In this document: positions 1,411 through 23,344 of the stretch, piece after piece
How the letters are laid out: every line of letters begins with the position of its first letter
Numbering within the stretch: the first letter of the stretch is position 1
NCBI GenBank assembly: GCA_963829705.1
Contig: CAWHJN010000001.1
Span: 23,844 to 87,843 of the forward strand
Direction of reading: 5' to 3'
DNA from: Rhodothermales bacterium
GTDB taxonomy: Bacteria > Bacteroidota > Rhodothermia > Rhodothermales > BA12
DNA: 64,000 nt
Position numbers and translations under genes: made by a program
Notes under the pieces: generated by a model
What the model saw: only the letters and a program-made list of their open reading frames with translations
Databases searched by the model: none
Told to the model about the DNA's origin: nothing

Positions 1411-1419
1411 GGTTGCGGA

Positions 1420-2337
1420 TCAGGCGGCGCGGCGCGTCTGGGCGAGCGTGGAGAAATAGACGTCTTCGAGGCCGGCGTCGACGGGGGCGAAGCCATGGCC
1501 AGGGTCGCCCTCGGAGAGGATGTGGATCGCGGTCCGCCCGGCGAACAGACGGGTCGAGAGGATCTCGTACTGCTCGCGGTAGCGGGCGAGCGCACCCCGT
1601 TCGATGACCTTCATCCAGATCCGGCCTCGGGTTGCGCGGATGAGCTCCTGGGGTGCCCCTTCGAGCTGGACGCGCCCGTCCGCAAGCACCGCCACGAGCG
1701 GGCAGAGGTCCGACACGTCCGCCACGATGTGCGTCGACAGGATCACGACCACGCGCTCACCGATCTCGGCGAGCAGGTTCAGAAACCGGTTCCGCTCCTC
1801 CGGGTCGAGGCCGGCGGTTGGCTCGTCGACGATGATCAGCTCCGGGTTGCCGATGAGCGCCTGGGCGATGCCGAAGCGCTGGCGCATACCCCCTGAAAAG
1901 CCGGAGAGCATCTTCTTGCGAACGCTCCACAGGTTCGTCTGGTGCAACAGCGTTTCGACGGTGACCTTGCGGTCCGACGCGGAGGCGACGCCCTTGAGGG
2001 TGGCCATGTGGTCGAGCATCTCGTACGCGGAGACGCGGGGATAGACGCCGAAATCCTGTGGCAGGTAGCCGAGCGTGCGCCGCAGCTTCTCCGGCTCGGC
2101 GATCACATCGATGTCACCGAACCGAATCGTCCCTTCCGTCGGCGTCTGTAGCGTCGCGATGGTGCGCATCAGCGTCGACTTGCCGGCGCCGTTCGGGCCC
2201 AGCAGACCGTACATGCCGTGGGGGATAGACAGCGTGACGCGGTCGAGCGCTCGCGTGCCGTTGGCATAGATGTGGCTAACGTCCTGAACGCTCAGCACCA
2301 TGCGCTTTTCCGTATCACGAAGGGTTACTTCATGCAT
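1420..2337 (-). CDS. ABC transporter ATP-binding protein
   Basis: C-terminal 305 aa of ORF 1420..3021(-). Walker A GPNGAGKST, signature FSGGMRQR, Walker B LIIVDEPTAGLD. Start taken at MHEVTL (2337); an alternative is MVLSVQ (2301). The N-terminal 230 aa of the long ORF is Arg/Pro-rich overprint. Confidence 0.9.
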   Translation of the reverse strand: MHEVTLRDTEKRMVLSVQDVSHIYANGTRALDRVTLSIPHGMYGLLGPNGAGKSTLMRTIATLQTPTEGTIRFGDIDVIAEPEKLRRTLGYLPQDFGVYPRVSAYEMLDHMATLKGVASASDRKVTVETLLHQTNLWSVRKKMLSGFSGGMRQRFGIAQALIGNPELIIVDEPTAGLDPEERNRFLNLLAEIGERVVVILSTHIVADVSDLCPLVAVLADGRVQLEGAPQELIRATRGRIWMKVIERGALARYREQYEILSTRLFAGRTAIHILSEGDPGHGFAPVDAGLEDVYFSTLAQTRRAA

Positions 2338-2448
2338 GTTCAGATCCTTTCGTTGGGGTAGCGTGAGAGACGATCCCGGACTGCAGAGACCGTCGTTCGC
2401 CCGGACGTTAAGCCGGAGTCCGGGTATCCAGGAACGGATCATCGCCCA

Positions 2449-3549
2449 ATGGCAGGTTGGGGCCGTCGAACGGCAGACGAGGTCCTCCCGGTGTGCCTGC
2501 CGGGCTCGTATACTCATCGCCGGCCGGTCCGACACGCGCGTGTACGGGTGACGGCGTCCCTGGCAAACGCGATCCTCCTGATGCCTCTTCCCGCAATCAT
2601 GTACCTGCTGACGGGCCTCTTCGGCGGCGTCTGGACCCGGAGCGAGATCGTGAGCCTCGTGGTCTCGGTGACCGTTGGCGTCGCCCTCACGCTCCTCGTG
2701 TACCGCCTCGTCCGCCGGATGCCGTGGCCGCGGCCCTTCCGCTTTCGGTTCGCCCTTCTGCATCTGGTAGCGGCACTCGGAAGTGGCCTGGCGTGGCTCC
2801 TCGTATCGAAGGCAATCGTGAGCCTCATCATCGGCTGGCCCGACGAAGACCAGGAGTGGATGATCGTCGTCGGGGCCTACGTGTACGCCGTCGTGGCGGG
2901 GATCTCGTACGCGGTCGAGGCGACCGCGCGGGCTGCGCAGGCCGAAGCCGCGGAGGCACAGGCTCAGCTGGCGGCGCTTCGGGCGCAGCTCCACCCGCAC
3001 TTTCTCTTCAACGCGTTGCACGCCGTGGTGCAGCTCATCCCCCTCGATCCCGCGCGCGCCGCCGATGCTGCGGAACTCGTCGCGTCACTCCTCCGCACGA
3101 CGGTGGAGGAGGAGCGCGACGTCGTGACCCTCCGAGACGAGTGGGCCTTCGTGTCGCGCTACCTCGAGGTCGAGCGCATGCGCTTCGGCGACCGGCTCTG
3201 TGTGCGTACGGAGATGCCCCCGGAACTCCTCGGCGAGCGCATTCCCTCCTTCGCGCTGCATACGCTCGTGGAGAACGCGGTGCGGCACGGAGCGGCGCCT
3301 CGCGTCGCCCCTACGGAGATCGTCATCACGGCTGTGCGGAGTGATTCGAACCTGTCGCTTACGGTGCAGAACACAGGCGACCCGCGGCCCACCAGCCCGG
3401 CGACGAACGGGGCGGGGACGGGACTGACGCGCCTCCGCGAGCGGCTCTCCTTCCTATACGGGGGCGCGGCGCGGTTGACGTACGGCGCAGCCGATGGCGG
3501 CGGCTTCGAGGCGCACATCGTCGTCCCACGCAGCCAGAGGGAGCCGTGA
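2449..3549 (+). CDS. Sensor histidine kinase, LytS/YehU-type (His_kinase + HATPase_c)
   Basis: N-terminal TM segments, H-box LHPHFLFNALHAVVQLI, ATPase motifs LVENAVRHG and GTGLTRLRERL. A more likely start is ATG 2581 (MPLPAIMYLL). The stop overlaps the response-regulator start (GTGA). Confidence 0.85.
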   Translation: MAGWGRRTADEVLPVCLPGSYTHRRPVRHARVRVTASLANAILLMPLPAIMYLLTGLFGGVWTRSEIVSLVVSVTVGVALTLLVYRLVRRMPWPRPFRFRFALLHLVAALGSGLAWLLVSKAIVSLIIGWPDEDQEWMIVVGAYVYAVVAGISYAVEATARAAQAEAAEAQAQLAALRAQLHPHFLFNALHAVVQLIPLDPARAADAAELVASLLRTTVEEERDVVTLRDEWAFVSRYLEVERMRFGDRLCVRTEMPPELLGERIPSFALHTLVENAVRHGAAPRVAPTEIVITAVRSDSNLSLTVQNTGDPRPTSPATNGAGTGLTRLRERLSFLYGGAARLTYGAADGGGFEAHIVVPRSQREP

Positions 3550-4283
3550 AAGTCAGGACGCTGGTAGTGGACGACGAGCCGGTCGCGCGCGTGGGTCTAC
3601 GCGCGATGCTGACGGCGTTCGACTGGGTGGAAGTGGTAGGCGACGCAGCTGACGGCGAGGCAGCCGTGGAAGCAATCCATCGGTTGCGACCGGAGCTCGT
3701 TTTTCTGGACGTGCAGATGCCGGGGCTGCTCGGCACGGACGTGCTACGCCGCATCGAGCGGCAGCCGTTCGTCATCTTCACGACCGCCTTCTCGCAGCAT
3801 GCGGTCAGCGCATTCGAGTTGGGCGCGGTGGACTACCTGCTGAAGCCCTTTGGCCCCACCCGCCTGAAGACCGCGATGGAGCGGATTCGCTCGGCGATCG
3901 GGGAGCCGGGCAGCGTAGGCGCGCTCGAGCGCCTCACCGGCGCGATGCCGGGAGGGCCGATCAGCCGCCTGTTCGTTCGCCTGGGAGGGAGCCTCGTTCC
4001 GCTGCCTGTAGAGAAGGTTTCATGCTTCGAGGCCGACGGGGATTACGTGATCGCCTATGCAGAGGGCACGCGGCACCTGCTGCACCTCTCGCTGAGCCGC
4101 CTCGACGCGCGCCTCGATCCACAGCGCTTTGTGCGCGTGCATCGGGCACACATCGTGAATCTCGACCGCGTCCGCGCGTTCAGGCGGGACGCTCGTGGAA
4201 ACCTCGAGGCCGAACTGGACGACGGGAGGCGGGTGCCGGTGAGCCGCACACGGGCGCAGGAACTCAGGAGACTGGGTCTTTGA
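3546..4283 (+). CDS. LytTR-family response regulator
   Basis: Receiver domain (VVDDEP...LVFLDVQMPG...FTTA...DYLLKP) plus a C-terminal LytTR DNA-binding domain (FVRVHRAHIVNLDRV). Translationally coupled to the kinase. Confidence 0.9.
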   Translation: MKVRTLVVDDEPVARVGLRAMLTAFDWVEVVGDAADGEAAVEAIHRLRPELVFLDVQMPGLLGTDVLRRIERQPFVIFTTAFSQHAVSAFELGAVDYLLKPFGPTRLKTAMERIRSAIGEPGSVGALERLTGAMPGGPISRLFVRLGGSLVPLPVEKVSCFEADGDYVIAYAEGTRHLLHLSLSRLDARLDPQRFVRVHRAHIVNLDRVRAFRRDARGNLEAELDDGRRVPVSRTRAQELRRLGL

Positions 4284-4731
4284 CCGGCCTCAAATGAACA
4301 GAGGAGGTTCACGCATGGCCCCTCTTCACGTGTGAACAAGCGCCTCCAGCGGACTTCTGACGGCGTGCCTGTGGGCACGCACGGACCCTCCATGCAGAGT
4401 CCGTCCATGTTGCTCGGCTCCGGGTGGTGGGCCGCCATTCCGAGTGAAATCAGCGTCGATACGAAAGTATCTCAGGTCTATCACAGGTATTCGCTTCACG
4501 CTGTCGTGCAGTGCGGCCTGCGGTCCTCACGGGCCATAGGTTGGCGGGCGCTGCGGCGGCGGGTGCAGGTCTGCTGCCTGCCTTTGCGTGGGAGGAGTAC
4601 GGTTTGAATGAGCTGGCACGGCTGCCCGATGACAGGCGCGGCGTGTGTTGCCCCTTCAATCTGCGGCGTTTACTTTGCTCGTACACCCTTCACGGCTGCC
4701 CGTCGCGGCAGCGCTTCGCCGTCAGGCACGC

Positions 4732-5115
4732 ATGGCACTCTCCTCGCTGCGTGAGTGGTCGCGCCGGCTGAAACGCGAGGCGCTCACGGTCTACTTCGCG
4801 GCACGTCATCCCGATACGCCAGTGCTGGTGCGGCTGTTTGCACTGGCGGTCGCCGCCTATGCCCTCAGCCCGATCGACCTGATCCCGGACTTCATTCCGG
4901 TGCTCGGCTACCTTGACGATCTGGTCCTGGTGCCCCTGGGTGTGTGGCTGGTCGTACGGATGCTACCGCCTGCCGTGATCCTGGCGGCCCGTGCTCAGGC
5001 TGCGGCGGCTGCCCGGCAGCCGGTGAGCCGGGGCGCCGCCGCTGTTATCGTGTGCCTCTGGGCCATCGCGCTGGCCTGGGGCGCGTGGCTCAGCTATCGC
5101 TGGCTGCATGCCTGA
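4732..5115 (+). CDS. DUF1232 (YkvA-like) membrane protein
   Basis: Motif YALSPIDLIPDFIPVLGYLDDLVLVPLGVW. Start placed at the internal ATG 4732 (MALSSLREW) of ORF 4645..5115. Confidence 0.75.
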   Translation: MALSSLREWSRRLKREALTVYFAARHPDTPVLVRLFALAVAAYALSPIDLIPDFIPVLGYLDDLVLVPLGVWLVVRMLPPAVILAARAQAAAAARQPVSRGAAAVIVCLWAIALAWGAWLSYRWLHA

Positions 5116-5219
5116 CAAGGTGTCCAGGCCGACGCGGTGGGCACGTCTTGACGGTAGTGGTCGTGTGGCGTATCGTGCCTCGGCCAGCGTCCATTTCCGG
5201 GCGTGGCTAAGCTTCGTCC

Positions 5220-5373
5220 GTTACCCGGCACAGCGGGCGGGCCTCCGTTCAACGGTGCCCGTAGACAGCACAGCGGTTCGTGGCGCGGCGTCGTTCGTTG
5301 CCCGCTCGCCGTTCGTCGGCACACCGTCGCCATTCGTCAGCAGCCTTTCGTCGCGCCCGCTGTGCCGGGTAAC
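5220..5373. repeat. Perfect 20-bp inverted repeat (GTTACCCGGCACAGCGGGCG / CGCCCGCTGTGCCGGGTAAC) enclosing 114 nt
   Basis: Arms at 5220-5239 and 5354-5373 are exact reverse complements. The enclosed segment carries four spaced TTCGT-containing repeats at 5294, 5312, 5333 and 5347. Confidence 0.8.
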
Positions 5374-5707
5374 CCGGCGCCGCTGGCCCACGCACGCCAG
5401 CCCGGTTTGCGCGTTGCAGCGCGGCGGTGTATCGTGCGCTTTCACACGCTGCCGTCTGTGCGCGGCAAACCTTGTTCTGTTCTACCGCGCCTGCCCTCAT
5501 CGCTTGAGTGCTGCTTCCGGATGCGGTGGTTCGAAAACCGGTGTGTTCCCTTTCCCTAAGCGTCCCTAACAAAACCTCCCGAACTGATTTCGGCATCCCC
5601 ACGAAAGTGGGGATTCACCTCGCCAGCGTGGTTTCCTGCGCAGGCGGGAATGACCGCAATGGGTTTTGTCAGCGGTTCTAAGTCGATCGGATCATCCGAT
5701 TGGGCCA

Positions 5708-6136
5708 ATGAATGCCAATCTAGACTACGCAATACTTCCAGGGGAAAGACTCATCTTGGAACGCCTTAGCGGCCCGATATCCTATCTAGACCTCGTCTCG
5801 TTGACGGAGGAAATTTGGAATGACGAGTTGTATGACAAGTCATACAGTGGGATAATCGACATCAGGCACGCTTCTATCGACATGGGCCACTCGAGCCTAA
5901 TGTCGTTTGCTCAGCTGATCCTTGCCTCTGAGTCTGCAAGCGAGGGGCAGGTCGCAGTCATTTCGAGTAAGCCCGTCGAGACGGCGTTGAGCTATTTGCT
6001 GGCCAAGAAGCTGACGAAGGGAGGGGTTATATCCGTCTTCAGCACGTGGGAGGGCGTCGTCGCTCACCTCGGCTTGGCGGAGTCCGTGCGGACACAGATC
6101 ACGGACGAGCGGGCATACGACGCCATGTTCGACTGA
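5708..6136 (+). CDS. Hypothetical protein (AT-richer orphan ORF)
   Basis: ORF 5666..6136. Start moved to ATG 5708 (MNANLDYAIL) because the TTG-initiated first 14 codons overlap a tRNA-like repeat. Balanced, non-overprint amino-acid composition. No motif recognised. Confidence 0.5.
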   Translation: MNANLDYAILPGERLILERLSGPISYLDLVSLTEEIWNDELYDKSYSGIIDIRHASIDMGHSSLMSFAQLILASESASEGQVAVISSKPVETALSYLLAKKLTKGGVISVFSTWEGVVAHLGLAESVRTQITDERAYDAMFD

Positions 6137-6729
6137 GTCAGAGGAGCGTGGGGCCCTGTGAGCGTTTGCGCCGTCTCGGCCACCCTTCGGACTCGCGTTT
6201 GCATCTGCGACGGCTAACCGGGCCTGTGGTTATCGTCCGCAGGAGTGCTTGAGACCGAGGGCGTCGCGGTTTCTGCTCGGCTCCTGAACACGTGATCCCG
6301 GCGCGGCAGAACCCTCCACTGCAGGCCGGCATGGGGCGTCAGCGTGGTCGACTCGTCCTGATGTCGGCATTTCTGCTGCTCGTCCAACCGTCGTGCTGAT
6401 TGCCCCATGCGGCTGAGCGGCCCTTGTTCTACCGCGCGCACTGGCCGGCCCGCAACCAGCACTGGGCAAGACCGTAATCGGCACCTTAGCCCTAGCCTCT
6501 GCGAGAGCATATCATCCAAGGCGCCCCGCCGCCGTGCGCATCCTGGCGATGTTGCAAGAGACGGAGGCTGGCAGCGTCCACCTCGACGCGCTACACCAGA
6601 AGGACGACGTACGAAAGACACCCGGCTACCTGAGGGTGAGCGCCGAGGACCTGCTGGAGCACTTCGCCGAACAAGCATAGAAGGGACGCCGCACATCATT
6701 CTTTCTCGGCTAGCCAGTTCAGCCCCGCC

Positions 6730-9116
6730 ATGTTCAAGAATTACTTCAAGACCGCTACGCGTAGCCTATCGAAGAATGCATTCTTCACAACCTTAAATGT
6801 CTTTGGCTTAGCGCTGGGCATGTCGCTCAACCTGCTGGTCGTTGCCATGGTCGTTTTCGCCTATCGATTCGATGACTTCCATCCAAATAAGGAGCGCATA
6901 TACCGGGTAATCACTCACGTTCGGGATTGGCATGAAAACCCGTCGTATGCCTCCTCGCCTACCGGCATATATCAACTTCTGGAAGGCAATGTAGCCGGTG
7001 TGGAAAAGGTCGTCCGTATTCATCAATCGCTTCGCACGATACGTTCGTTATGCGGGTGTCGAAGTGCCTGTAAACGGGTACTTTGTGGATGCAGAGTATC
7101 TCTCGATGTTCAACTTCCCACTGCTGCAGGGCGACGTCGAGACTTCGCTTTCAAAGCCTTATACGATGGTTGTTACCGAGGCCGCAGCTGCCAGGATATT
7201 CGGGGACAAGGACCCGATGGGCGAACTTGTATTCATCGAGCCATTCGGCGAAGTGATGGTCACAGGTGTAGCGAGAAACATGCCGAAGAACACGCATCTG
7301 AAGGCAGAGGCTCTGGTTTCATTCGCCACGCTCACATCCTATCACGGCGCGCCCTTCACAGACGATGAAGCAAACTGGAATAGCTTCTACAATTCGTACA
7401 ACTATCTGCAGATATCCGAAAATTCGAGCCCTTCTGCCATTGAGGCATCTATTAATGGTGTTGCGAAAGAAAAATACACGACACCTGAGTTTCAAGGCTT
7501 CGTTTGAACTTCAGCGTCTAGACAAGATCGTTCCCGGACCTCAACTAGACAATAACATGGGCAACGAATACAGCTACCAGGAGCTGGTGCTCATGGGAAT
7601 TCTACCGATGCTTATCCTCTTCGCGGCCTGCAGCAACTACGTGAACCTTTCTATCTCTCAATCACTCAGCCGGATGAATGAGATCGGTGTCCGCAAAGCG
7701 CTAGGGGGACGGAAGAGTCAGATCTTCATACAGTTTGTGATGGAGAGCACAATCATGGTGCTGCTGGCCGTGACGCTGTCGTATTTCTTCTATGAGATCA
7801 TTCGCGATGAAGCGCTGTCGCTTACGGGCTCACATGATTGGGTTGACCTGAGTCCGACCTGGGGAACGCTTGCCGGATTTATACTCTTCGCCCTCCTTGT
7901 GGGCTTCGTTGCGGGCATTGTTCCCGCGTTACATTTTTCAAGAATCAGCCCCATCCAGGCATTGAAAGGGAAGGGGCCGCAAATAAGAAAGGGGGGCTGG
8001 TTTTCACTGCGCAAAATCGTAATCACATCTCAGTTCGTCCTGTCGATGGGTTTCATTATGGCAGTGGTGATTATGGTGCAACAGTACCGGTACTCGGTGA
8101 ATTATGATTTCGGATTCAACCAGAATAAAATACTCAACGTTGAGGTTCAACAGGCGAATCCGCAACTGGTCAAGAACGAATTTGAGAAGCTTTCCTTCGT
8201 TCCTCTGATCTCTCTGTCGTCGCACCCGCTGGGAGCTGGAGACGTACCGGGGTTGTACGTGAAGCGGGCGACCACTTCAGATTCCCTATACGCGAGCAGG
8301 ATGGCCATCGATGAAAACTTTATGGCAAACATGGGTCTGCATCTTATGCTGGGCAGGAACTTCACCGACGAGGCCAGCGAAAACGCGCACTCGATCATCA
8401 TCAATGAGGTCTTTGCAAGGACGCTAAGCCCCGATGACGCTTCCAGAGCAATCGACCAAGTAGTCATACTACCAGATAGAGGAGAAGTGAGAGTGATAGG
8501 TATTGTGGAAGATTTCCATTACGCGAGTCTTAAATCGTCTATTGGAAACTTCTTCTTTGAATACGTGCCCGAGCATTTTCGCTATGCGAATGTGCATCTT
8601 CAAGCAACCAACGAGAGCCAGGCTCTTTCGGAAATGGAGGCAGCCTGGAAATCCATCGGCAACAGCACCGCTTTTAAGGCCGAATTCCTCACCGACCAGA
8701 TCCACGATGCCTACGCGTTCTACAACAAGATCGTGAAGATATGGGGGTTCTTGGGACTGTTGGCCATCACCTTGGCGTGCCTGGGGCTACTGGGGACGGT
8801 CGTGTTCACGGTCAAGAACAGGGTCAAAGAAGTGAGCATCCGGAAGGTGTTTGGTGCCTCTTCCGCAGCCCTGGTGTACCTGCTTTCAAGGGACTTCATT
8901 GTGCTGCTGGCCATCGCGGGTATCGTTACCGTTCCAAGCGTCTGGGTGTTGATGAATATGGTGCTGCAGGAGGGACAGTATTATCATGCGCCCATCGGTG
9001 CCTTTGAAGCCATCATAAGCCTAGCCGTCGTATCGCTCCTCGGACTGACCACCATCTTCTCACAAACTCTGAAGGCAGCCAATAGGAATCCAGTGGATAA
9101 TCTGAGGGTAGATTGA
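6730..9116 (+). pseudogene. FtsX/MacB-type ABC transporter permease, disrupted by two +1 frameshifts
   Basis: Three consecutive ORFs (6730.., 6998.., 7365..9116) read as one roughly 790-aa protein: MFKNYFKTATRSLSKNAFFTTLNVFGLALGM...VEKVVRI | NRFARYVRYAGVEVPVNGYFVDAEYLSMFNFPLLQGD...TTPEF | KASFELQRLDKIVPG... followed by FtsX TM bundles. There is an extra base near 7021 and another near 7493. The region is markedly AT-richer than its surroundings. Confidence 0.8.
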
Positions 9117-9471
9117 TCCAATACGACAGCGAGGTAGACGGTACCGTTTTCCTGATGTGATACGCGCAGGATCTTGCCTACCATTGCTCATCTCTCGTTT
9201 GTGGGTTCAGTACGTGCGTCCGACTGTTTGGCTGTAGTGGATAATTTACCAGAACCCCGGGTTTCAACATGAACGTCCGAATACCCGAAGAAAGGCGCGG
9301 CAGAACCCGCTGGGCCGACACAGGGCTCCAGCGTTCTCAGCCGCTCCTAACGTCTCGGCATCCATAGCTTCGGCCAGTCCACCGCGCCCTCAGCCCTGTG
9401 CGGCTGAGCCGCAAGTGTTATGCGGCTACGCACATTGACGTGCCCCAAGAAGGGTGGACGTTTGAGTTTGG

Positions 9472-10628
9472 CTACAGACGCGCTGCCTGAGCCTGATGAT
9501 ACGCCACTTCGTGTTCCGCCGGCGTCCGATAGCCCAGCCGCGAGTGACGCCGCCGGTGGTTGTAGAAGTCGATCCAGTCGGCGAGCCCCTGGATCGCTGC
9601 CTCGTGCGTGGCAAAGTGCTCCTGACGCAGCCACTCGTCTTTGAGCGTGCCGAAGAAGCTCTCCGCCACGGCGTTGTCCAGGCATTGCCCTCGGCCCGAG
9701 AAACTCGCGACCGCCTCGTGCGCCGCCAGCACGTCGAGGTACTGCTGGCTCGTGTATTGACTCCCTTGGTCGGCGTGGTGAATTAGACCCGGCAGGGGCT
9801 GCCGAGCCACAAACGCCGCTTCGATGGCGCTCACCGCCAGCGTTCGATGCATCGACGATCCCCCACGCCAAGCCACCACGCGCCGGGCATAGAGATCGAG
9901 CACGACGGCTACGTAGAGCGTGCCCTCGCCCGTCTTGAACTCGGTCGTGTCGGCCACCCATGCCACGTTGGGTGCCTCGGCTGAGAAGCGGCGTGCCAGC
10001 ACGTTGGTCGCTCCATCGAGCGGTGGCGATGAGCCGGCAGCCCGACGCCTGCGGCCTTGCTCGACGGCGAGTCCCCCTAGCCGCATCAGGCGTCGCACGC
10101 GTTCACGTCCTACCTTGAGCCCCTCGGCGCTCAGCTCTGCGTGGATGCGCCGCACGCCGTAGCGTCCACGCCCCCGCGCATGGGCCGCCCGCACGTGCGC
10201 GAGCAGGCGATGGTCTTCGCGTGCGCGCTCCGCCTCTGGTCGCGACAGCCACGCGTAGTAGCCGCTGCGGCTCACCTGGAGCGCCCGGCAGAGTGCCGGC
10301 ACGCTGTGTTGCCCCCGGTGATCGAGGATGAACTGGTACTTCAGCGGGGGCGTGAGCTGAAGATACCAACGGCTTTTTTTAGGATGGCGACCTCCTCTCT
10401 AAGCCGGGCGTTGTCGCGCATGAGGGCCAGACGCTCGGCGTCGCGAGCATTGCCGTTACCAGGGAAAGCTTGATCGGCGTGTGCGGCAAGGGCGTCGCGC
10501 CAGCGGCGCAGCATCTCCTGGCGGATGCCGAGTTCACGGGCGGTTTTGGAAAGGTTGCCCGATTCGACGGCGAGCCGAACGGCTTCGCGCTTGAATTCAG
10601 GAGAGTACGCTCTGCGTTTGGATGGCAT
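9472..10628 (-). CDS. IS3-family transposase OrfAB (OrfA 10341..10628; OrfB frame 9472..about 10380, joined by programmed -1 frameshift)
   Basis: OrfA is an HTH protein (MPSKRRAYSPEFKREAVRL...AILKKAVGIF). The -1 frame after the A7 run reads KKSRWYLQLTPPLKYQFILDHRGQHSVPALCRALQVSRSGYYAWLSRPE, followed by an integrase core (HHADQGSQYTS...LDNAVAESFFGTLK). Confidence 0.9.
10374..10380 (-). promoter_or_regulatory. A AAA AAA slippery heptamer for -1 ribosomal frameshifting
   Basis: A seven-T run on the plus strand (10374-10380) gives CTA AAA AAA GCC in the OrfA frame, located where the OrfB frame opens. Confidence 0.75.
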
Positions 10629-10818
10629 GTGTGTGGAGGTGATGGTGGAAGATAGAGACTAATCTCATCTGTCCACCATCCTCAGACCACGTCACATCCC
10701 TCGAACGATCGAAGGCCCAACCGTGTTTGTGAAGGGCTACTCCTTGCAACTGTTTCACGAGGCATCTCGTCACAACGTGCCGACAAGACTATCGTCACCC
10801 AAGCTGAGCAGATGACCT

Positions 10819-11010
10819 ATGACCACTTCGATGAAGCGACACTCTCCGCAGGCCTTCCTTGTCATCGGTATCGTCTTTCTGGTTCTTGGCCTGAGTGATC
10901 ACACGGCCTTTATTGCCCTCGGTGCGGCCTTCATCGCGATTAGCGCCGCGTTATCTCGTCGGGAGAAGAGAAACGACCTAAATTCGGAATCCGGCCCAAA
11001 CGCCGCATAA
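10819..11010 (+). CDS. Small two-TM membrane protein (hypothetical)
   Basis: 63 aa with two clear hydrophobic helices (AFLVIGIVFLVLGL, FIALGAAFIAISAAL) and a polar tail. No homology recognised. Confidence 0.4.
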   Translation: MTTSMKRHSPQAFLVIGIVFLVLGLSDHTAFIALGAAFIAISAALSRREKRNDLNSESGPNAA

Positions 11011-11141
11011 CGGCCAAGTTATGCCGCCCGTGTTGGACGGGAAGGATCCACATCGATCCTTCGCGGACTGGTCGTCGCTGAGGACTTTTGGCGGCGGAGA
11101 GCGTAGGGGCCGTCTCTCCAGTTGCTCGTCCGCAATCAACG

Positions 11142-12074
11142 ATGACGATACTCACCAAGGTCTCCCCCCTCGTGCTCGCTCGCTGGAGCATCGTCGTCAG
11201 CTTGGTGGTCCTCGGCCTCAAGTACGTAGCGTTCGCACTCACCGGATCGGTCTCGCTTTACTCCGACGCCCTCGAGTCACTCGTCAACGTAGCCGCCGCG
11301 GTCGTGGCACTCCTCGCAATCCGCGTGGCCATTCGGCCTCCCGATGCGGATCACCCCTACGGCCATACGAAGGCCGAGTACCTCTCGGCCGTCGTTGAGG
11401 GGGCCCTCATTTTGTACGCCGCAATCGAGATCGTGCGGGCGGCGTGGGGGCGGCTCCTCGACCCGATGCCTCTAGAGGCCATCGGCCTCGGTCTCACCGT
11501 CTCTGTCGGGGCGACAGGCCTGAACGCTGCATGGGCAGCGGTCCTTGTCCGTGCCGGTCGCCACAGCCGGTCACCGGCTCTCATCGCCGACGGAAGGCAC
11601 CTATGGACCGATGTGGTGACGACGGTCGGGGTTTTAGCGGGCGTCGGGCTCGCGGTCGTCACCGGGTGGTGGGTGCTCGACCCCATCATCGCGATGGCAG
11701 TGGCTGCGAACGTGGTCGTTGTGGGCGTCCGGCTCGTTCGGGAGTCGGTCGGTGGCCTGATGGACGAGAGCGTGTCTAAGGAGCACCTAGCGTCGATCCG
11801 TGAGACGATCCTCGCCCACATGGGCGAAGCTGAGGAGGTTCATGCCCTTCGAGCCCGCCATGCGGGGCGGCACACATTTATCGAGTTTCACCTTGTGGTC
11901 CGGGGCGAGGCGACGGTGGACGAGGCCCACGCTCTTTGCGACCGCCTGGAGCAATCCATCCGCGGGGCCATCTCTGACTCAAGCGTCACGATTCACGTCG
12001 AACCAGCTCATAAGGCGAAGGGGCACGGCGGGGTCGTCTCCGTGGGGTCTGACGTGCCCCACACGTTCACCTGA
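11142..12074 (+). CDS. Cation diffusion facilitator (CDF) family metal efflux transporter
   Basis: GSVSLYSDALESLVN, PPDADHPYGHTKAEYL, ALIADGRHLWTDVV and a C-terminal cytoplasmic domain (VHALRARHAGRHTFIEFHLVV). Start at ATG 11142 within ORF 11088..12074. Confidence 0.9.
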   Translation: MTILTKVSPLVLARWSIVVSLVVLGLKYVAFALTGSVSLYSDALESLVNVAAAVVALLAIRVAIRPPDADHPYGHTKAEYLSAVVEGALILYAAIEIVRAAWGRLLDPMPLEAIGLGLTVSVGATGLNAAWAAVLVRAGRHSRSPALIADGRHLWTDVVTTVGVLAGVGLAVVTGWWVLDPIIAMAVAANVVVVGVRLVRESVGGLMDESVSKEHLASIRETILAHMGEAEEVHALRARHAGRHTFIEFHLVVRGEATVDEAHALCDRLEQSIRGAISDSSVTIHVEPAHKAKGHGGVVSVGSDVPHTFT

Positions 12075-12186
12075 CTGGATCTCAGTCGACCACCCGTCGC
12101 GGCTGAATCCGCCACTCTAGCGGACGGCACGCGCGAGCGCCCTGCCTGAGTCCTACCTTCCGCCCCTGCGTGCCGCCTCTGAGTGG

Positions 12187-12511
12187 CCCAATGTTCTGCC
12201 GCCCTCGCTTTGGAGCTACGAACAATCGACTACATCGCAGCGCACCGGGCGGGCAACCCTCATCGGCGAGCGCACGCGGGGCGCGGGGCACATCGGCCCC
12301 ACGATGTCCTTGAGCGGGGGATACCGAGTGATGATCCCCATCGGCCGGCCGCGAGACCCAGTGACGGACGGGGGGGGAACTGACCGGCCTCACGCCCGAC
12401 GTGCGGGTGCCCGCCGACTCCGCGCTCGACGAAGCGCTCCGCCGAGCAGGAGTGGACCTGCCCGCCGGACGGAGGGCCCTCCAGGCAGCCGAGGCTCGGC
12501 ACCAGCCGTGA
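12187..12511 (+). pseudogene. C-terminal remnant of an S41 (tail-specific/C-terminal processing) peptidase
   Basis: Reading across three frames gives RATLIGERTRGAGHIGP / LSGGYRVMIPIGRPRDPVTDG / TGLTPDVRVPADSALDEALRRAGVDL...*. The frame breaks include a G8 run at 12371-12378. No start codon and no N-terminal or catalytic part is present. Confidence 0.55.
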
Positions 12512-12736
12512 GGGTGCCCCCCACGGAGCACATTCTCGTGCTCAAGGGCACGCTTGGGTTAGTCGAAGGGTTACTGTTCGGCTAAGCGCCCCCGCAGACC
12601 TGACACTGCGCCGTAGGCCGACGCCCGGCGGGTCGGCTTAACTCAGGTGTTGGGCGGCTTGGCCAAATTGCTGCCGCACTTGACATTCTACAGCTCACGG
12701 CGTATTCCCCGCCAGATCGCAAATCGGCCAGAGCCC

Positions 12737-13813
12737 ATGACCCGAGTCCTTTTCCGGATGCGCCGCATACTGTGGGCTGGCGTTCTCCTCGCCGGGGGAG
12801 TGTATCCAGGTGCCCTCACGGCACAGCAGTCGCGAACTGGCTCTCTTCCCGCGGACGTTGATTCCATCGCGCAGGCGGTTTTCCTCGAGTACCCGAACGC
12901 CGCTCTGTCGCTGGCCGTCTTCCGCGGCTCGGACGCCATTTTCGTCAAGGGTTATGGTGCGGCGGACCGGGAGCAGAACCCTCCCGTCGACGGGCGGACG
13001 GTTTACCGCATCGGCTCGGTGACCAAGCAGTTCACGGCGGCGGCGATTCTGCAGCAGGTGGAGCGTGGTAGACTGGCCCTCGACTCGGCAATCTCGGAGT
13101 ATCTGCCCGAGTACGCACCGCCAGGAGAGCCGACCATCACCCTTCGCCAGCTTCTCAACCATACCTCCGGCATCCCAACGTACACGGAGCCACCGGTTGC
13201 GCTTGAATTCGCCGGTAGAGCCTTGCTCTCCCATGCCGACGTCCTCTCTGCCCTCGACGGCGAGCCCCTTAACTTTGCACCCGGCTCGCGCTACGAATAC
13301 AGCAACTCCAACTACTATCTGCTCGGCGTCATTCTCGAACGCGTAACCGGGCAGTCGTACGCAGCCTACGTTCGGGAGCATCTCACCGAGCCGGTGGGTC
13401 TGGCGGAGACGACGTATTGCGGAGCGGGAGCAACGTCCCCTGTCCAGGGCTACACCGCCGCAGGAAAGGAACTCCACATCGCGCCGCGGCTCCAGATGGA
13501 CTGGCCCTATGCTGCTGGCGCCCTGTGCTCAACCGTCACCGATCTGGCGGCGTGGAACCATGCGCTTTCCCACGGTCAGGTCATCGCGCCGGCTTTGTAC
13601 CAACGCATGGTGTCGCCGAGTCGGCTGCGGGATGGACGCGAGATTGCCTATGGGATGGGACTTCGCATCGATACACTGGCTGGGCATCCGCGCATCTGGC
13701 ACAGCGGCGAGATGTCAGGCTACACCGCCACACTCAGCCAGTACCCTCAGGATAGTCTGACCCTCGTGATTCTGACCAACCGCGGAGCGAATCCCACCGT
13801 TGCCACCTCTTGA
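12737..13813 (+). CDS. Serine hydrolase, beta-lactamase/transpeptidase fold (class C-like)
   Basis: S-x-x-K motif in YRIGSVTKQFTAAAIL, a YSNSNY motif and a signal-like N-terminus (MRRILWAGVLLAGG). Start at ATG 12737 within ORF 12647..13813. Confidence 0.85.
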   Translation: MTRVLFRMRRILWAGVLLAGGVYPGALTAQQSRTGSLPADVDSIAQAVFLEYPNAALSLAVFRGSDAIFVKGYGAADREQNPPVDGRTVYRIGSVTKQFTAAAILQQVERGRLALDSAISEYLPEYAPPGEPTITLRQLLNHTSGIPTYTEPPVALEFAGRALLSHADVLSALDGEPLNFAPGSRYEYSNSNYYLLGVILERVTGQSYAAYVREHLTEPVGLAETTYCGAGATSPVQGYTAAGKELHIAPRLQMDWPYAAGALCSTVTDLAAWNHALSHGQVIAPALYQRMVSPSRLRDGREIAYGMGLRIDTLAGHPRIWHSGEMSGYTATLSQYPQDSLTLVILTNRGANPTVATS

Positions 13814-14016
13814 GCTGCTCGCCCAGTCCAGGGTTTCGCATATCAACGGTTTAATAGAGGGAATCTTAGGAGATTACCCCTTCCATGTCTTCCATGGCGG
13901 TTGGAGGTTGGTTGAGTGCCAGTGTAGGTCAGCACAACCATCTCCGCGACCGTAACACCTTGAGCGAGTGATCGAACAGCAGGGAAGCCTACAATCTGCA
14001 TAGCCTGTCGTCAATC

Positions 14017-14046
14017 TCTATACATGTCGAGGGTGACATGTATAGA
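14017..14046. promoter_or_regulatory. Candidate operator: perfect 12-bp inverted repeat TCTATACATGTC-N6-GACATGTATAGA, with a third half-site CCTATACACGTCAC at 14059-14072
   Basis: Seen directly in AT-rich DNA 45-75 nt upstream of the Fic start codon. No downstream T-run, so it is unlikely to be a terminator. Confidence 0.4.
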
Positions 14047-14090
14047 TTCAAGAGCTTTCCTATACACGTCACTCTGATTCACCGCGCCTC

Positions 14091-15213
14091 ATGCGTGTGC
14101 TTTCTCCTCTCAGCGGGCTCGACGCACAGCGCTTCGAGACGACCGAGATCCTGAAACGCCTCGCCGGAGCGAGCCGCCAGCTTGCCGAACTCAAGGGCGT
14201 CGCTGCCTCGATCCCGCACCAGGGCATACTCGATAAACACGCTCGGCATTCAGGAGGCGAAGGACAGCTCGGCCATCGAGAACATCGTCACGACGCACGA
14301 CGAGCTTTTCCGCGACGACGCCTTCCCGGAGCAGATGGGCAGCGCGGCGGCCAAAGAGGTGCTGCGCTACCGGCAGGCGCTGTGGGTGGGCTTCAGAGCC
14401 GTGCAGCAGACGGGACTGCTCACCAACAAGCACATTCTGGCGATACAGGCCGAACTCGAACGTAACGAGGACGGGTACCGCCGCCTGCCGGGCACGACGC
14501 TCCAGGACGGCGCAGGCCGCCTCGTGTACATGCCGCCGCCACCTGACCTGGTACCGGGCCTGATGGCTGCCCTGGAGCGTTTCGTCAACGATGACGCGGG
14601 CTTCGAAGCCGATCCGCTCATCAGGATGGCGCTCATTCACCACCAGTTCGAGAGCATCCACCCGTTCTACGATGGCAACGGGCGCACGGGCCGCATCGTC
14701 AACGTGCTCTACCTCGTCAAAGAGGGACTGCTCGAAGCGCCCGTGCTCTACCTGAGCCGCCACATCGTGCGGACGAAGGCCGATTACTACCGGCTGCTCC
14801 AGGCCGTCCGCGAAGAGGACGCGTGGGAAGAATGGGTGGTGTATATGCTCACGGCAGTCGAGGAGACGGCGCGCGAGGCGATCACCACCATCACGGCGAT
14901 ACGGGAGGCCCTCTCGGATTACAAGCACCGCATCCGAGAGGGCTACCGCTTTTACAGCCAGGATCTCATCAACAACCTGTTTACGCACCCCTACACGAAG
15001 ATCCAGTTTGTCGAGCAGGATCTGGGCGTGTCGCGTCTGACAGCCACGAAATACCTCGACGCGCTGGCCGATGGCGGCTTTGTGCTCAAGCGGAAGGTGG
15101 GGCGCTCCAACTACTACATCAACGACGCCCTGCAGCGCATCCTGACCGGCGATGCCGCGCGGGCACTGATCGTCTCACCGAAAGCTGATCCAGGAAACCC
15201 GCCATTTCGGTAA
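14091..15213 (+). CDS. Fic family protein (class II, N-terminal inhibitory helix), with an apparent +1 frameshift near 14232
   Basis: Fic motif HPFYDGNGRTGR and inhibitory motif SSAIEN. The N-terminal Fic_N-like part MRVLSPLSGLDAQRFETTEILKRLAGASRQLAELKGVAASIPHQGIL is in one frame (ORF 14091..), and INTLGIQEAKDSSAIENIVTTHDELF... is in the next (ORF 14182..15213). One extra G lies between CTC and ATA. Confidence 0.85.
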
Positions 15214-15364
15214 GAGGCGGGGGAGGGAAGGGGCAAAAGCGTGAAACAAGGGTGAAACAAAACCCTGCGGTTACGTGCGGTTTGGCTCAGTTCCATGAAG
15301 CCGAAACCGGCCTAAACGAGCTGGAATCGCGGTTTTGGGTGCACACAGAGGTGCAATATTGACT

Positions 15365-15409
15365 CTCGTAATGAACAGGTCAGCGGTTCGAATCCGCTTA
15401 TCGGCTCCA
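15365..15409 (+). tRNA. Orphan 3' fragment of a tRNA-Thr(CGU)-like gene (anticodon loop to CCA); not a functional tRNA
   Basis: CTCGTAA (loop, CGT at the anticodon position) TGAAC AGGTC AGCGG TTCGAAT CCGCT TATCGGC T CCA. The T-arm, 3' acceptor strand and encoded CCA are perfect. No complementary 5' anticodon stem, D-arm or acceptor strand could be folded upstream. Confidence 0.65.
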
Positions 15410-15415
15410 CAGGAA

Positions 15416-15463
15416 ACGGCCTCGGAAGCAGCGTTTGCGTGCATTCTGAGGCCGTCTTTGTTT
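15416..15463. terminator. Bidirectional hairpin terminator (ACGGCCTC...GAGGCCGT followed by CTTTGTTT)
   Basis: 8-bp GC-rich stem at 15416-15423 / 15448-15455 with a T-rich tract. It sits between the tRNA fragment (+) and the convergent BNR gene (-). Confidence 0.55.
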
Positions 15464-15476
15464 GCCGGGGGAGGCG

Positions 15477-18416
15477 TCAGCCCCTGACCAGTTCTTCCTC
15501 CATCTCCTCCGAGCGCGGCTCGGCGCGGCGGCGACGCGGGCGTTCCTTGACCTCAAACGTCGCGGTGCCCGTGCCGCCGCCAGCGTCGACCTCGACGGTG
15601 TAGGTGCCGGGGACGAGGTAGACCGCGCCGTTGTCGGCCTTTTTGAATGTGCCTTTGTCCTGCATCTGTTCGAAGCGCGCTGTGTCGAAGGTGAGGTCGT
15701 ACGTCGCGTAGTTGAGGCCCTTGTCTACGTCGAGGGATTTCTCCGCGAGTAGCATTCCCGTGCTGTCTTTGACGCGGAGCGTGCCGCGCCCTTCTGCTGC
15801 GGCGTAGAACGGAATCGTCATCTCGGGTGCGACGGGCTCGCTCCACAGCGTGAAGGCCGTCCCCCACGATTCGTTGTGCATCACGTCGTCTAGGTCGAAC
15901 AGGTGGACGGCCTCGGCCATCAGCGTGGGCGTAAGCGCTTGCACGTGTTCTACGTCGGCCACGAAAATCGACCGTCCGTGCGTGCCGACGACGAGTTCCT
16001 TCTCGCGCGCCTGCACGCGCAAGTCGTGGACGGACACGCTCGGCAGATCGCGCATCATCGCCATGAACGTCGTCCCGCGATCCAGCGAGACGTACAGGCC
16101 GTGGTCGGTGCCGACGTAGAGCAGGTCTGCGTTGTCCGGGTCTTCGAGGATGACGTTGACGGGCTCTTTCGGCAGGTCGGTGCCGATGCGTGTCCACGTC
16201 TTCCCGTAATCGTCGGAGCGGTAGACGTGGGCATCCATGTAATCCCAGCGGTAGCCGTTGAGGCTCGCGTAGACGCGGCCCTCGGCGTGCTTCGACGCCT
16301 CGACGCGGCTCACCCACAGGTCGGAGGGCAGCGCGTCGGAGATGCGCGCCCACGTGTAGCCACCGTCGCGGCTGACGTGGATGAGGCCGTCGTCGCTGCC
16401 GGCGTAGAGCAGCCCGAAGCGCAGCGGCGATTCGTCGATGGAGGAGAGGGTGCCGTAGGGCACGTCGCCCGGCTTGCCGCCCTGCGTGAGGTCGTCCGAG
16501 AGCGTCTGGAACGTTTCGCCCTTGTCGAGCGAGCGGTGGAATTTGTTGGAGCCGAAGTAGAGTACGTCCTGGTTGTGGCGCGACAGGTGGATGGGTGCCT
16601 GCCAGTTGAAGCGCAGCGGACGCTCGCCCAGCACGTGCTGCGGGCGGACGCTTTCGCGCTCGCCCGTCGTGCCGTCGCGGCGGGTGTAGAAGCCGAACTG
16701 CGAGCCGAAATACGCCGTCCCGTCGCGGGTGTCCACCTCTACCTGCATCCCGTCGCCGCCGCCGAGGCGCTCGTACGGGTAGCGGCCGCTTTCGTACCAG
16801 CCGAGCGACGCCCGGTACGTGCGCGGGCCTTTCCAGACGCCGTTGTCCTGCAGGCCGCCGTAGACGTTGTAGGGTTCGGCGTTGTCCACGGCGATGGCGT
16901 AGAACTGGCCCACCGGTGGCGTATTGGCTTTGAACCACGTCTCGCCGTCGTCATAACTGACGTTGAGGCCGCCGTCGTTGCCGTTGACGAGGTGGCCGGG
17001 GCGCGTCGGGCTCACCCACAGCGCGTGGTGGTCGACGTGGACGTTGGCCCCGTTGATGTTCTTCCACGACGCGCCGCCGTCGCCGGAGCGCAGGATGGGC
17101 ACGCCCATGATGTAGATCTTCTGCGCGTCGAGCGGCGATACGCGGATGTCGCCGAAGTAGTAGCCGTAGGAGAAGTAAACGTTGTCGAGATAGTCGTCGT
17201 GCGTGCGCGCCCACGTCGCACCGCCGTCGGTGGAGCGGTAGACCTCGGCCCCGACGACGGGCGTGTCGAAAAGCGCGGCGTTGGCGTCTTCGAGGTAGTC
17301 GACGAGTGCACGCGGCGCGATCTCGCCCTTGCGGACCCGCTCGGTGATGGACTGCGCGGTGTAGGAGGCCGGGAATCCGTTTTCTTCGAGGTACGCTTCG
17401 ACATCCTCAAGGGTGAGCGCGAGGAACTGATCTTTCGTCATCACGAGGAGGGCGTCGCGCGTCAGGCCCTGCGTTTCGTCCTCGTCGGCTTCCTCGGGCC
17501 GGTGCGCCTGGTTGTCGATGAGCGCGTAGAGCGTGCCACTCTCGCTGTGCAGCGCCAGTCCGATGCGCCCGAGCGTCTCGCCGATGGGCAGGCCGCTGGC
17601 GGCGGTGCTGACGAGCGCCCACGTGTCGCCGCCGTCGGTGCTCTTGTAGATGCCTGACGCCGCGCCCGCCTCTACGAAGTCCCACGCCCGCCGCGTGCGC
17701 TCCCACGTGGCGGCGTAGAGCACGTCGGGATTCGTCTCGTCGACGACGAGATCGACAGCTCCCGTGTTGCCGTCGGTGGCGAGCGTCTGCGTCCACGACG
17801 CGCCGCCATCGGTGGTTTTGTAGACGCCTCGCTCGCCGCCCGGACTGTAGAGCGGACCCAGCGCCGCCACCCACGCCGTCTGCGGGTCGTTCGGGTGGAG
17901 CACGATGCGGCTCGTGTGCTGCGTGTCGCCGAGGCCGCGGTGCGTCCACGTCTTGCCGCTGTCGGCACTCGTGTAGAGGCCCACGCCCGCGTACGACGAC
18001 CGGGATGCGTTTTTCTCGCCCGTGCCCACCCACAGCTTTTCGCCATGCGCCCAGTCCACGGCGATGTCGCCGATGGTCATCACGGCCTCCTCGTCGAAGA
18101 CGGGCGTGAACGACTGCCCGTTGGTGCGCGTCACCCACAGCCCGCCCGAGGCGTAGGCGACGTAGAAGTGCGTGGGATCGAAAGGCGACACGTCCATGTC
18201 CACCACGCGCCCACTCATCACCGTCGGGCCGATGTTGTCGAAGGGCACGTTTTTGACGAGCGAGGCGCGTTGGAGCGCCTGCCGCTGTGCCGCTGCCTCC
18301 ATGCGTTCGATGGCGGGTGTGCGCGGGTACGGGTTGGGCGCGAGCGCATCGACCTCCTGCGCCCGGACGGCGGGGACGAGCGTGAGGGCGAGCAGCAGCA
18401 GGAGCGAGCGGAGCAT
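15477..18416 (-). CDS. Secreted BNR/Asp-box repeat protein (sortilin/VPS10-like beta-propeller)
   Basis: Signal peptide MLRSLLLLLALTLVPAVRAQ and about nine Asp-box repeats (SADSGKTW, TTDGGASW, STDGGDTW, STDGGATW, SGDGGASW, SYDDGETW, SRDGGYTW, SDDYGKTW). Start at the internal Met (18416) of ORF 15477..18464. Confidence 0.8.
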   Translation of the reverse strand: MLRSLLLLLALTLVPAVRAQEVDALAPNPYPRTPAIERMEAAAQRQALQRASLVKNVPFDNIGPTVMSGRVVDMDVSPFDPTHFYVAYASGGLWVTRTNGQSFTPVFDEEAVMTIGDIAVDWAHGEKLWVGTGEKNASRSSYAGVGLYTSADSGKTWTHRGLGDTQHTSRIVLHPNDPQTAWVAALGPLYSPGGERGVYKTTDGGASWTQTLATDGNTGAVDLVVDETNPDVLYAATWERTRRAWDFVEAGAASGIYKSTDGGDTWALVSTAASGLPIGETLGRIGLALHSESGTLYALIDNQAHRPEEADEDETQGLTRDALLVMTKDQFLALTLEDVEAYLEENGFPASYTAQSITERVRKGEIAPRALVDYLEDANAALFDTPVVGAEVYRSTDGGATWARTHDDYLDNVYFSYGYYFGDIRVSPLDAQKIYIMGVPILRSGDGGASWKNINGANVHVDHHALWVSPTRPGHLVNGNDGGLNVSYDDGETWFKANTPPVGQFYAIAVDNAEPYNVYGGLQDNGVWKGPRTYRASLGWYESGRYPYERLGGGDGMQVEVDTRDGTAYFGSQFGFYTRRDGTTGERESVRPQHVLGERPLRFNWQAPIHLSRHNQDVLYFGSNKFHRSLDKGETFQTLSDDLTQGGKPGDVPYGTLSSIDESPLRFGLLYAGSDDGLIHVSRDGGYTWARISDALPSDLWVSRVEASKHAEGRVYASLNGYRWDYMDAHVYRSDDYGKTWTRIGTDLPKEPVNVILEDPDNADLLYVGTDHGLYVSLDRGTTFMAMMRDLPSVSVHDLRVQAREKELVVGTHGRSIFVADVEHVQALTPTLMAEAVHLFDLDDVMHNESWGTAFTLWSEPVAPEMTIPFYAAAEGRGTLRVKDSTGMLLAEKSLDVDKGLNYATYDLTFDTARFEQMQDKGTFKKADNGAVYLVPGTYTVEVDAGGGTGTATFEVKERPRRRRAEPRSEEMEEELVRG

Positions 18417-18593
18417 GAGGTAGACGCGGATGGTGACGGAGATGCCTCGAAAATAGGGCGGCACGCAGGTCCCGGCGCACCGCGTCAGAGGCGATGTGGT
18501 TTTTCCGGCTCATTACAGGCGCGCAAGGAGGCGCCGCTCGTTCTGCGCGTAGGTTGGGCTGTTCTGTGCCACCTCCGCTCTGTAATCCCATCG

Positions 18594-19034
18594 ATGGAAA
18601 CTGCTCCTTCCCCCGACGCCGACCTCAGCAAAAAACAGCGCTCTGCCTTTCGCACGGCTCGCAAAAGCGCGGCGCTGCTGCTCAAGAGCCGCTACCGCTC
18701 GCTCTTCCTCGTCCGCGAGGCGTACCAGAAGCTCGTCAAGCACGAGGGGGGGATGCGAGGCGTGTGGGGCGAAGTGCGGATGCTCATCCGGCTCGTGCGG
18801 GCGTGGGCGCGGCGCGACTACACGGCCATCCCGTGGAAACCGCTCCTCTACGCCACCGCCGCGCTCGTCTACTTCGTCAGCCCCTTCGACATGATCCCGG
18901 ACCTGCTGCCTGGCCTCGGCTTCGTGGACGACGTGGCCGTGGTGGGGGCCGTCGTGCGGGCCATCCAGAACGAGTTGACGCTTTTCGAGGCGTGGGAATC
19001 GGGCCGCGCGGCCCTCTCTGATCCTTCCGCATGA
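18594..19034 (+). CDS. DUF1232 (YkvA-like) membrane protein, second copy
   Basis: VSPFDMIPDLLPGLGFVDDVAVVGAVV. Start METAPSPD at 18594 within the long overprinted ORF 17895..19034. The stop overlaps the next start (ATGA). Confidence 0.75.
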   Translation: METAPSPDADLSKKQRSAFRTARKSAALLLKSRYRSLFLVREAYQKLVKHEGGMRGVWGEVRMLIRLVRAWARRDYTAIPWKPLLYATAALVYFVSPFDMIPDLLPGLGFVDDVAVVGAVVRAIQNELTLFEAWESGRAALSDPSA

Positions 19035-19873: not shown

Positions 19874-19987
19874 GCTTTGCGTACGGGTTCGTCACTTGGG
19901 GGCATACGCAGATGCCCTTCGTGTTGTGTACACTTGATCAACGGTGCGTGTAAAGCGCATTCCTATCCCTCAAACTGAGATACTATC

Positions 19988-23339: not shown

Positions 23340-23344
23340 GATCC

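Follow-up and report, generated by a model that had tools for sequence, protein, structure and literature searches.

What is the origin of the foreign-looking DNA that lies between about 5.5 and 15.5 kb of the Rhodothermales sequence examined here, a window of 64 kb (the whole stretch that was analyzed; 66% GC, its placement in the Rhodothermales resting on conserved genes)? A first-pass annotation had read positions 5668–15409 as one decaying genomic island of ~9.7 kb, inserted into a tRNA-Thr gene and set between normal core genes. Our results do not show a single unit: the region is a mosaic in which homology breaks off sharply from one part to the next, and the parts come from different sources. 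The explanation that we favor, with roughly even confidence, is that accessory DNA accumulated here in several events, as a patchwork at a synteny break immediately downstream of a conserved VPS10/BNR gene, with an attR-type scar as its right edge. It is built on what can be observed directly: the composition and gene content of the region, the tRNA fragment, the different origins of the modules, and the point at which synteny ends.

The compositional mosaic that had been proposed is real, as windowed GC and tetranucleotide profiles both deviate, and this deviation is what the general test for an acquired genomic island looks for. When the whole 64 kb was scanned in 1-kb windows, all those with a GC content below 0.60 fell between 5.5 and 11.5 kb, the drop beginning at ~5560. 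The tetranucleotide distance from the rest of the window revealed a continuous outlier at 5001–15500 (z 2.5–9.5), and 5.5–15.5 kb is the sole long outlier in the window; positions 1–5000 are compositionally native. Third-position GC was 0.58–0.64 in the permease gene described below, 0.71–0.79 in the genes for the small protein, the CDF exporter and the hydrolase, and 0.83–0.89 in core genes. Furthermore, three frameshifts are spread over two genes, an S41 peptidase gene is both truncated and frameshifted, and the genes compared outside the region are intact. These results support the claim of foreign, decaying DNA. The sole other tetranucleotide outlier, at 61.5–64 kb, holds a ribosomal protein S1 gene with five S1 domains; this outlier (61500–64000) is a highly expressed gene and no island.

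Does the right edge carry the mark of an integrase? Positions 15365–15409 (+ strand) read CTCGTAA-TGAAC-AGGTC-AGCGG-TTCGAAT-CCGCT-TATCGGC-T-CCA, that is, in order, the anticodon loop, the 3' anticodon stem, the variable loop, the T arm, the 3' acceptor strand, the discriminator and CCA, with exact canonical spacing and no 5' half. Supplied with a generic 5' half, the piece was called as tRNA-Thr(cgt) by ARAGORN; with its native upstream sequence, it gave no ARAGORN tRNA call. The five upstream bases are TGACT where GTTCA is needed, and the tRNA gene is therefore interrupted at its anticodon loop. Its acceptor stem (GCCGAUA/UAUCGGC) is the one found in E. coli thrW. When the 52-nt piece was searched by itself, Rfam ranked a tmRNA 3' end above a tRNA; this candidate was rejected because it needs a 3-nt insertion, whereas the tRNA spacing is exact. 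An exact search for the fragment in IMG/VR returned 0 matches.

The trace that insertion by a tyrosine integrase most often leaves is a 3' fragment beginning with the anticodon loop: in the Islander survey of Hudson, Lau and Williams (2015), a 3' tDNA fragment was present in 3760 of 3919 islands, and anticodon-centered sites numbered 2083 (PMC4383910). By the rules of that survey, our fragment has the side and the orientation to be expected of a displaced 3' piece if the island is on its left (PMC4383910). These results support the view, already taken in the first-pass annotation, that the right end is a genuine 3' fragment of tRNA-Thr(CGU) of the kind left by tyrosine-integrase insertion, and an integrase would then have been its maker. 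The earlier report that both an integrase gene and an intact tRNA-Thr are absent also holds for this window. ARAGORN called only a tRNA-Met and a tRNA-Lys in the 64 kb and no intact tRNA-Thr, Phage_integrase matched no open reading frame (ORF) or inter-ORF segment of the window, and the ORFs checked with Pfam beside tRNA-Met and tRNA-Lys gave no integrase match.

Immediately to the right, between the tRNA piece and the convergent 995-aa VPS10/BNR gene, lies a strong hairpin at 15416–15455 (both strands), 22 nt from the stop codon of that gene. The hairpin previously taken for the tRNA's own terminator is real and could end transcription from either strand; a simple terminator scan does not call it. 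Its assignment to the tRNA cannot be claimed, because relatives with no tRNA at this place have their own hairpin directly after the 995-aa homologue, and the hairpin may instead terminate transcription of the 995-aa gene. On the left, a 152-nt spacer (15214–15364, + strand) separates the tRNA piece from the Fic gene. It contains two tandem exact copies of GTGAAACAA at 15241 and 15252, 11 nt apart, and by inference may be the arm region of the integrase, the pair being candidate arm-type sites. No homologue of the spacer was found, no copies of GTGAAACAA were found near the left boundary, and the 23 matches to the tandem motif in IMG/VR were unrelated and uninformative.

The module nearest the scar is a Fic cassette (13994–15160, + strand) with a SoFic-type Fic gene (14091–15213, + strand), which, as had been claimed, is frameshifted: a single extra base near 14231 causes a +1 shift and lies in no homopolymer run. 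The interval 13994–15160 is 91.1% identical in nucleotides to two 5.9-kb contigs (L044 and L045) that encode an intact 369-aa Fic protein of the same 90% cluster; one of the two is from the same metagenome assembly as the relative L001. In these contigs, the homologous stretch starts 7 nt beyond the stop codon of a tyrosine integrase of 420 aa, whose domains are Arm-DNA-bind_5, SAM_5 and Phage_integrase, and a terminase fragment lies further downstream of Fic. The L044 integrase found nothing in our window by tblastn and no relatives in IMG/VR. Judged from these alignments, the module nearest the scar derives from a phage-like element that carried an integrase, and in our window this integrase has been lost cleanly. 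The Fic relatives beside an integrase thus provide new, indirect support for an integrase origin, and the cassette would have belonged to the element that made the tRNA scar. Fic also has homologues of 83% identity (protein and nucleotide) on unrelated contigs; homologues lie in defense and toxin–antitoxin contexts, on many plasmids and on viral contigs, and the 160 relatives in IMG/VR are at most 56% identical, none of them beside a tRNA-Thr. On one such unrelated contig (L035), an 83%-identical Fic gene (10001–11095) lies ~540 nt downstream of a tRNA-Met (9388–9463), a further case of Fic close to a tRNA. Just upstream of Fic, a palindrome, CTATACATGTC-N6-GACATGTATAG, at 14018–14045 (L044 ~1497–1524) is kept in Fic relatives (L037/L038) and is probably an operator for autoregulation of the cassette.

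Is the locus itself a variable one? The conserved right flank begins with the 995-aa VPS10/BNR-repeat gene (15477–18464, − strand), the first gene of a syntenic block. Its gene order, 15480–24630, is common to L001, L019, L032 and L034 and ends exactly at the 3' end of the 995-aa gene. In L032 and L034, the genes that come after it are ADOP/FtsX, Zn-ribbon, YggS and DivIVA, all of them missing from the window; in L001 and L019, yet other DNA occupies this place. The 995-aa protein has one exact database match, on a 1.01-Mb metagenome contig, and a next best match of 74% amino acid identity; scans of genome and metagenome contigs found nothing above 74% apart from the exact match. With 68–69% nucleotide and 74% amino acid identity to its closest relatives, the gene is far less conserved than the cassette on the left flank. 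We also asked whether, as suggested at the outset, position 5116 joins ~15410 directly in relatives. It does so in none, and no empty site was found: the relatives (closest at 74% amino acid identity) do not have the region, but they do not have the left flank either and carry other genes after the 995-aa gene. The discontinuity in synteny extends at least to window position 1.

The left flank had been taken for normal core genes, and this did not hold up. Positions 1–4283 (mixed strands; Pfam and nucleotide homology) are a cassette of an M1-peptidase-fused ABC permease and an ATPase on the − strand and a LytS-type kinase and a LytTR regulator on the + strand. The stretch is 86% and 80% identical in nucleotides to two contigs of a Rubricoccaceae metagenome-assembled genome (L039/L040), the homology stopping at 4260–4283. 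The LytTR regulator, always 245 aa long, recurs at 80–86% protein identity in Gemmatimonadota, Acidobacteriota and on a Gemmatirosa plasmid. The cassette as a whole (relatives L039–L042) was likewise observed at 80–86% protein identity in Rhodothermales, Gemmatimonadota, Acidobacteriota and the Gemmatirosa plasmid, in a different neighborhood each time. From these identities and unrelated contexts, the ABC/LytTR cassette looks as if it had been transferred between phyla. A DUF1232 gene (4645–5115, + strand; Pfam) is the last compositionally native gene before the GC drop. A second DUF1232 gene lies upstream of the 995-aa gene; a recent duplication of the two was rejected, as only a 26-aa motif is common to them.

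Could the 27 nt at 5668–5694 (+ strand), proposed as the left repeat, be the second att site? They begin with an 11-nt exact match to the variable-loop/T-arm part of the tRNA fragment, after which the similarity is weak. When the window was scanned with the fragment, the local alignment score at 5668 was 23, which was equaled by unrelated matches on the other strand, and shuffled fragments reached a median maximum of 24 across the window. On the + strand, too, and 400 nt from 5668, the fragment matches again with a score of 22 (5265–5281). In a test confined to the + strand of 5100–5800, a region picked post hoc, shuffled fragments gave P values of 0.0075 for the best and 0.001 for the second match, and in 63 other regions the best and second-best maxima were 21 and 20, compared with 23 and 22 here. 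These regional statistics are only suggestive because the region was chosen after the match had been seen, and correction for ~180 region-by-strand choices removes their significance. Furthermore, nothing resembling a tRNA 5' half lies upstream of 5668, and Rfam found nothing tRNA-like over 5100–5800 and only noise over the island and the left boundary. The motif CAGCGGTTC has three copies in the window, all on the + strand, at 5271, 5670 and 15381. The 11-nt core exists, but an att site at 5668 is not established: window-wide, the score does not exceed chance, no tRNA context surrounds the match, and the left repeat appears at best suggestive.

The boundary holds other structures as well. A perfect 20-nt inverted repeat, GTTACCCGGCACAGCGGGCG (5220–5239/5354–5373), is present a single time in the window, where it follows the DUF1232 gene in non-coding DNA of high GC. 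It encloses 114 nt with several TTCGT motifs and the first T-arm-like match, the CAGCGGTTC copy at 5271–5279, and the whole of 5220–5373 folds much better than its shuffles (z −4.5). Exactly at the GC drop, two adjacent hairpins (5586–5655) read ATCCCCAC-GAAA-GTGGGGAT and TTCCTGC-GCAG-GCGGGAA; the second gave a weak match to a CRISPR-repeat model (E 0.97) and occurs only once in the window. Two other candidate repeats were rejected, namely D3 (6402/9393), at chance expectation for 13 kb, and a 13-nt repeat, TGTTCTACCGCGC, noticed by eye at ~5478 and ~6425 and estimated to be at chance level in 13 kb.

Between this boundary and the Fic cassette, we found modules of several kinds. The first, an intact gene of GC 0.545 at 5708–6136 (+ strand), had been called an orphan, and this label does not fit: its 142-aa product has 234 homologous representative clusters (best 59% identity). 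No Pfam family matches it, and the AlphaFold model (pLDDT 89.4) has as its top Foldseek matches a DUF3478 SpoIIAA-like fold, SpoIIAA and RsbV. The protein is thus predicted to have a STAS/SpoIIAA-like fold and belongs to an uncharacterized family; no partner kinase or phosphatase gene lies beside it.

The second module, at 6724–9116 (+ strand; GC ~0.50), is a pseudogene of the ADOP family of duplicated FtsX/MacB permeases. The model for this family (TIGR03434) describes two FtsX domains, each after a MacB-like periplasmic domain, in one polypeptide of ~800 aa. Here, the domains are present, the frame is broken twice, near 7040 and 7493, and the largest fragment scores below the cut-off. In tblastn, the Fibrella homologue aligns in three frames (6724–7044, 7037–7498 and 7488–9113). 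This gene, on the plasmid CP155473 of Fibrella (Cytophagales), is 77.7% identical in nucleotides over 2.38 kb. Its plasmid neighbors, a 143-aa hypothetical protein and a PadR regulator, were considered as further counterparts and are not homologous to the 142-aa ORF or to 6417–6677. The native ADOP/FtsX orthologue of L032/L034 is missing from the window, and the unrelated, Cytophagales-like pseudogene lies ~6 kb away on the other strand; two ADOP genes near the same spot are probably a coincidence, given the many paralogues.

An intact IS3-family element follows at 9436–10694 (− strand), a single copy in the window. It has orfA and orfB with an A7G slippery site between them (−1 frame; the run was read from the sequence at 10374–10381), and NCBIfam transpos_IS3 matches it with 319 bits against a cut-off of 160. 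Its ends, located by eye and by script, carry inverted repeats that start with TGACGTG and match at 26/40 positions, and a 3-bp target duplication, CAT, flanks it, within the 3–4 bp of the family. The duplication is intact; therefore, the element is a simple insertion and the cause of no deletion, and it is probably recent.

Further to the right, a small predicted membrane ORF of 63 aa (10819–11010, + strand) lies in low-GC DNA and has weak matches only; a weak Pfam Exc match at 10943–11119 (E 0.059), a candidate excisionase, was taken as noise. Next come an intact, MntE-like CDF cation exporter gene (11142–12074, + strand) with Cation_efflux and ZT_dimer domains, whose 392 bits against NCBIfam MntE are under the equivalog cut-off of 500, and the C-terminal stump of an S41 peptidase (12178–12508, + strand). 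The score of the stump, 17.5 bits for the unaltered sequence, rises to 26.4 bits and passes the Pfam cut-off when its one internal frameshift is repaired, and the stump covers only model positions 109–165 of 165, the last third of the domain. An intact gene with a Pfam match encodes a serine hydrolase of the beta-lactamase fold (12737–13813, + strand), which is probably secreted. The permease pseudogene, IS3 element, exporter, S41 stump and hydrolase had all been named correctly from the letters.

How might such a patchwork have come about? We infer the following order of events. A tyrosine integrase would have recombined an element into tRNA-Thr(CGU), with the crossover in or near the anticodon loop, leaving the 45-nt 3' part of the tRNA beside the chromosomal flank. 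All that would remain of the element is the Fic cassette with ~150 nt of arm DNA; the integrase would be gone, homology to L044/L045 starting 7 nt after where its stop codon would be. The Cytophagales-like ADOP permease, the STAS-fold gene, the CDF exporter joined to the truncated S41 and serine hydrolase genes, and the recent, simple IS3 element would represent separate arrivals, and several of the arrived pieces would now be decaying by frameshift and truncation. The left end (an intact tRNA-Thr, then the integrase) may have been deleted or may lie beyond the left edge of the window; in the latter case, the variable region would be at least 15.4 kb long and include the ABC/LytTR cassette.

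Several observations weigh against this reconstruction. With no integrase, intact tRNA-Thr or second clear att site in the window, the fragment is the sole ground for a role of an integrase. Fic in L044 adjoins no att site or tRNA, which makes its link to the tRNA scar circumstantial. None of ~25 relatives has a tRNA beside the 995-aa gene, and a native tRNA-Thr at that place is unproven. No empty site was found because the nearest relatives have only 74% protein identity. The native composition of 1–5000 fits poorly with membership in one recent island, and, the contig being assembled from a metagenome, errors in sequencing could account for the frameshifts.

The original proposal of a single ~9.7-kb island in tRNA-Thr(CGU), with 5668–5694 as the eroded, tRNA-proximal att remnant and the integrase and tRNA since decayed, would account for the compositional outlier at ~5.0–15.5 kb, for a GC drop (~5560) close to the proposed repeat, for + strand matches in 5100–5800 that are rare for shuffled fragments and exceed those of 63 other regions, and for the common orientation of the three CAGCGGTTC copies. 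We consider it unlikely. The score of 23 is at chance level window-wide and below the shuffled median maximum, the test region was post hoc and a ~180-choice correction abolishes its significance, and neither a tRNA 5' half upstream of 5668 nor anything tRNA-like in Rfam accompanies the match. Moreover, an 11/11 core beside roughly random sequence is unlike uniform decay, the modules have several origins and meet at sharp junctions, the left flank does not consist of core genes, and 5116 joins 15410 in no relative. A bolder reading, in which the three co-oriented CAGCGGTTC cores would be no coincidence and the tRNA-Thr scar and two pseudo-att sites would form a landing pad still used by an integrase encoded elsewhere in the genome, so that the mosaic would have grown by repeated site-specific captures at degenerate tRNA-like cores and not by random accretion, is very improbable in our estimation.

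Alternatively, no integrase was involved, and a native tRNA-Thr(CGU) beside the 995-aa gene lost its 5' half by an illegitimate deletion or insertion as the neighboring DNA was replaced. In favor of this scenario, the window has no integrase, no intact tRNA and no convincing second repeat, and the fragment adjoins a hairpin that is possibly the shared terminator of two convergent genes; the region also has other junctions that are not site-specific, where the S41 gene is truncated and where the integrase upstream of Fic was cleanly lost. We nevertheless find it distinctly unlikely. A tRNA lies downstream of the 995-aa gene in 0 of ~25 relatives, and losing the sole tRNA-Thr(CGU) in a genome of 66% GC should be costly. 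A break in the anticodon loop is also the commonest integrase crossover (PMC4383910), and a random break would fall there in an estimated ~1 in 6 cases. Least probable of all would be an artefact, the low-GC block being an assembly chimera and the frameshifts sequencing errors. The source is indeed a metagenome contig with a single record, and 2/3 of the frameshifts are in lower-GC DNA. On the other hand, high-GC sequence lies on both sides, further accessory genes surround the block, the IS3 target duplication is clean, the S41 gene is truncated and not just frameshifted, the Fic frameshift is outside a homopolymer run, and the compared genes outside the region have no frameshifts.

The multi-event patchwork matters little beyond the annotation of this genome. 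It is one more case in which distant donors (Cytophagales-like, phage-like and cross-phylum) have supplied accessory DNA that accumulates and decays beside a tRNA scar, in a Rhodothermales lineage that is poorly sampled. Its lesson is that a lone tRNA fragment and a short repeat are insufficient to set the boundaries of an island, and that a flank that looks like core can itself be mobile.

How does the locus compare with known systems? Like the tDNA islands of Islander (PMC4383910), it has a displaced cognate 3' tRNA fragment, beginning at the anticodon loop, at one end, and foreign cargo upstream, on the 5' side, as expected for a 3' fragment. Unlike them, it has neither the required intact tRNA or tmRNA at one end nor a tyrosine integrase inside the island within the 64-kb window, and its contents are multi-source; as for an att-core direct repeat, there is the 11-nt exact core at 5668, at chance level window-wide and suggestive only in the post hoc regional test. 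The Fic/Doc "moron" genes of temperate phages and integrative elements (SoFic, NF046030) have the same Fic_N, Fic and SoFic-like_C architecture; the closest relative of ours lies beside a phage-type integrase and near a terminase, and homologues of 50–56% identity are present on IMG/VR viral contigs. The gene here differs in being frameshifted, in missing the integrase neighbor and in scoring 305 bits against an equivalog cut-off of 550. Regions of genomic plasticity, or integration hotspots, share with our locus the synteny break by a conserved gene, with different DNA in each relative, as well as an IS element, pseudogenes and modules from separate donors, and no specific feature sets this one apart. 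Consequently, the best-fitting category is a plasticity region or integration hotspot with the remnants of several elements (cryptic, degraded islands and prophages), and the feature belongs to a well-known type, a stretch of accessory DNA, composite and decaying, at a variable spot.

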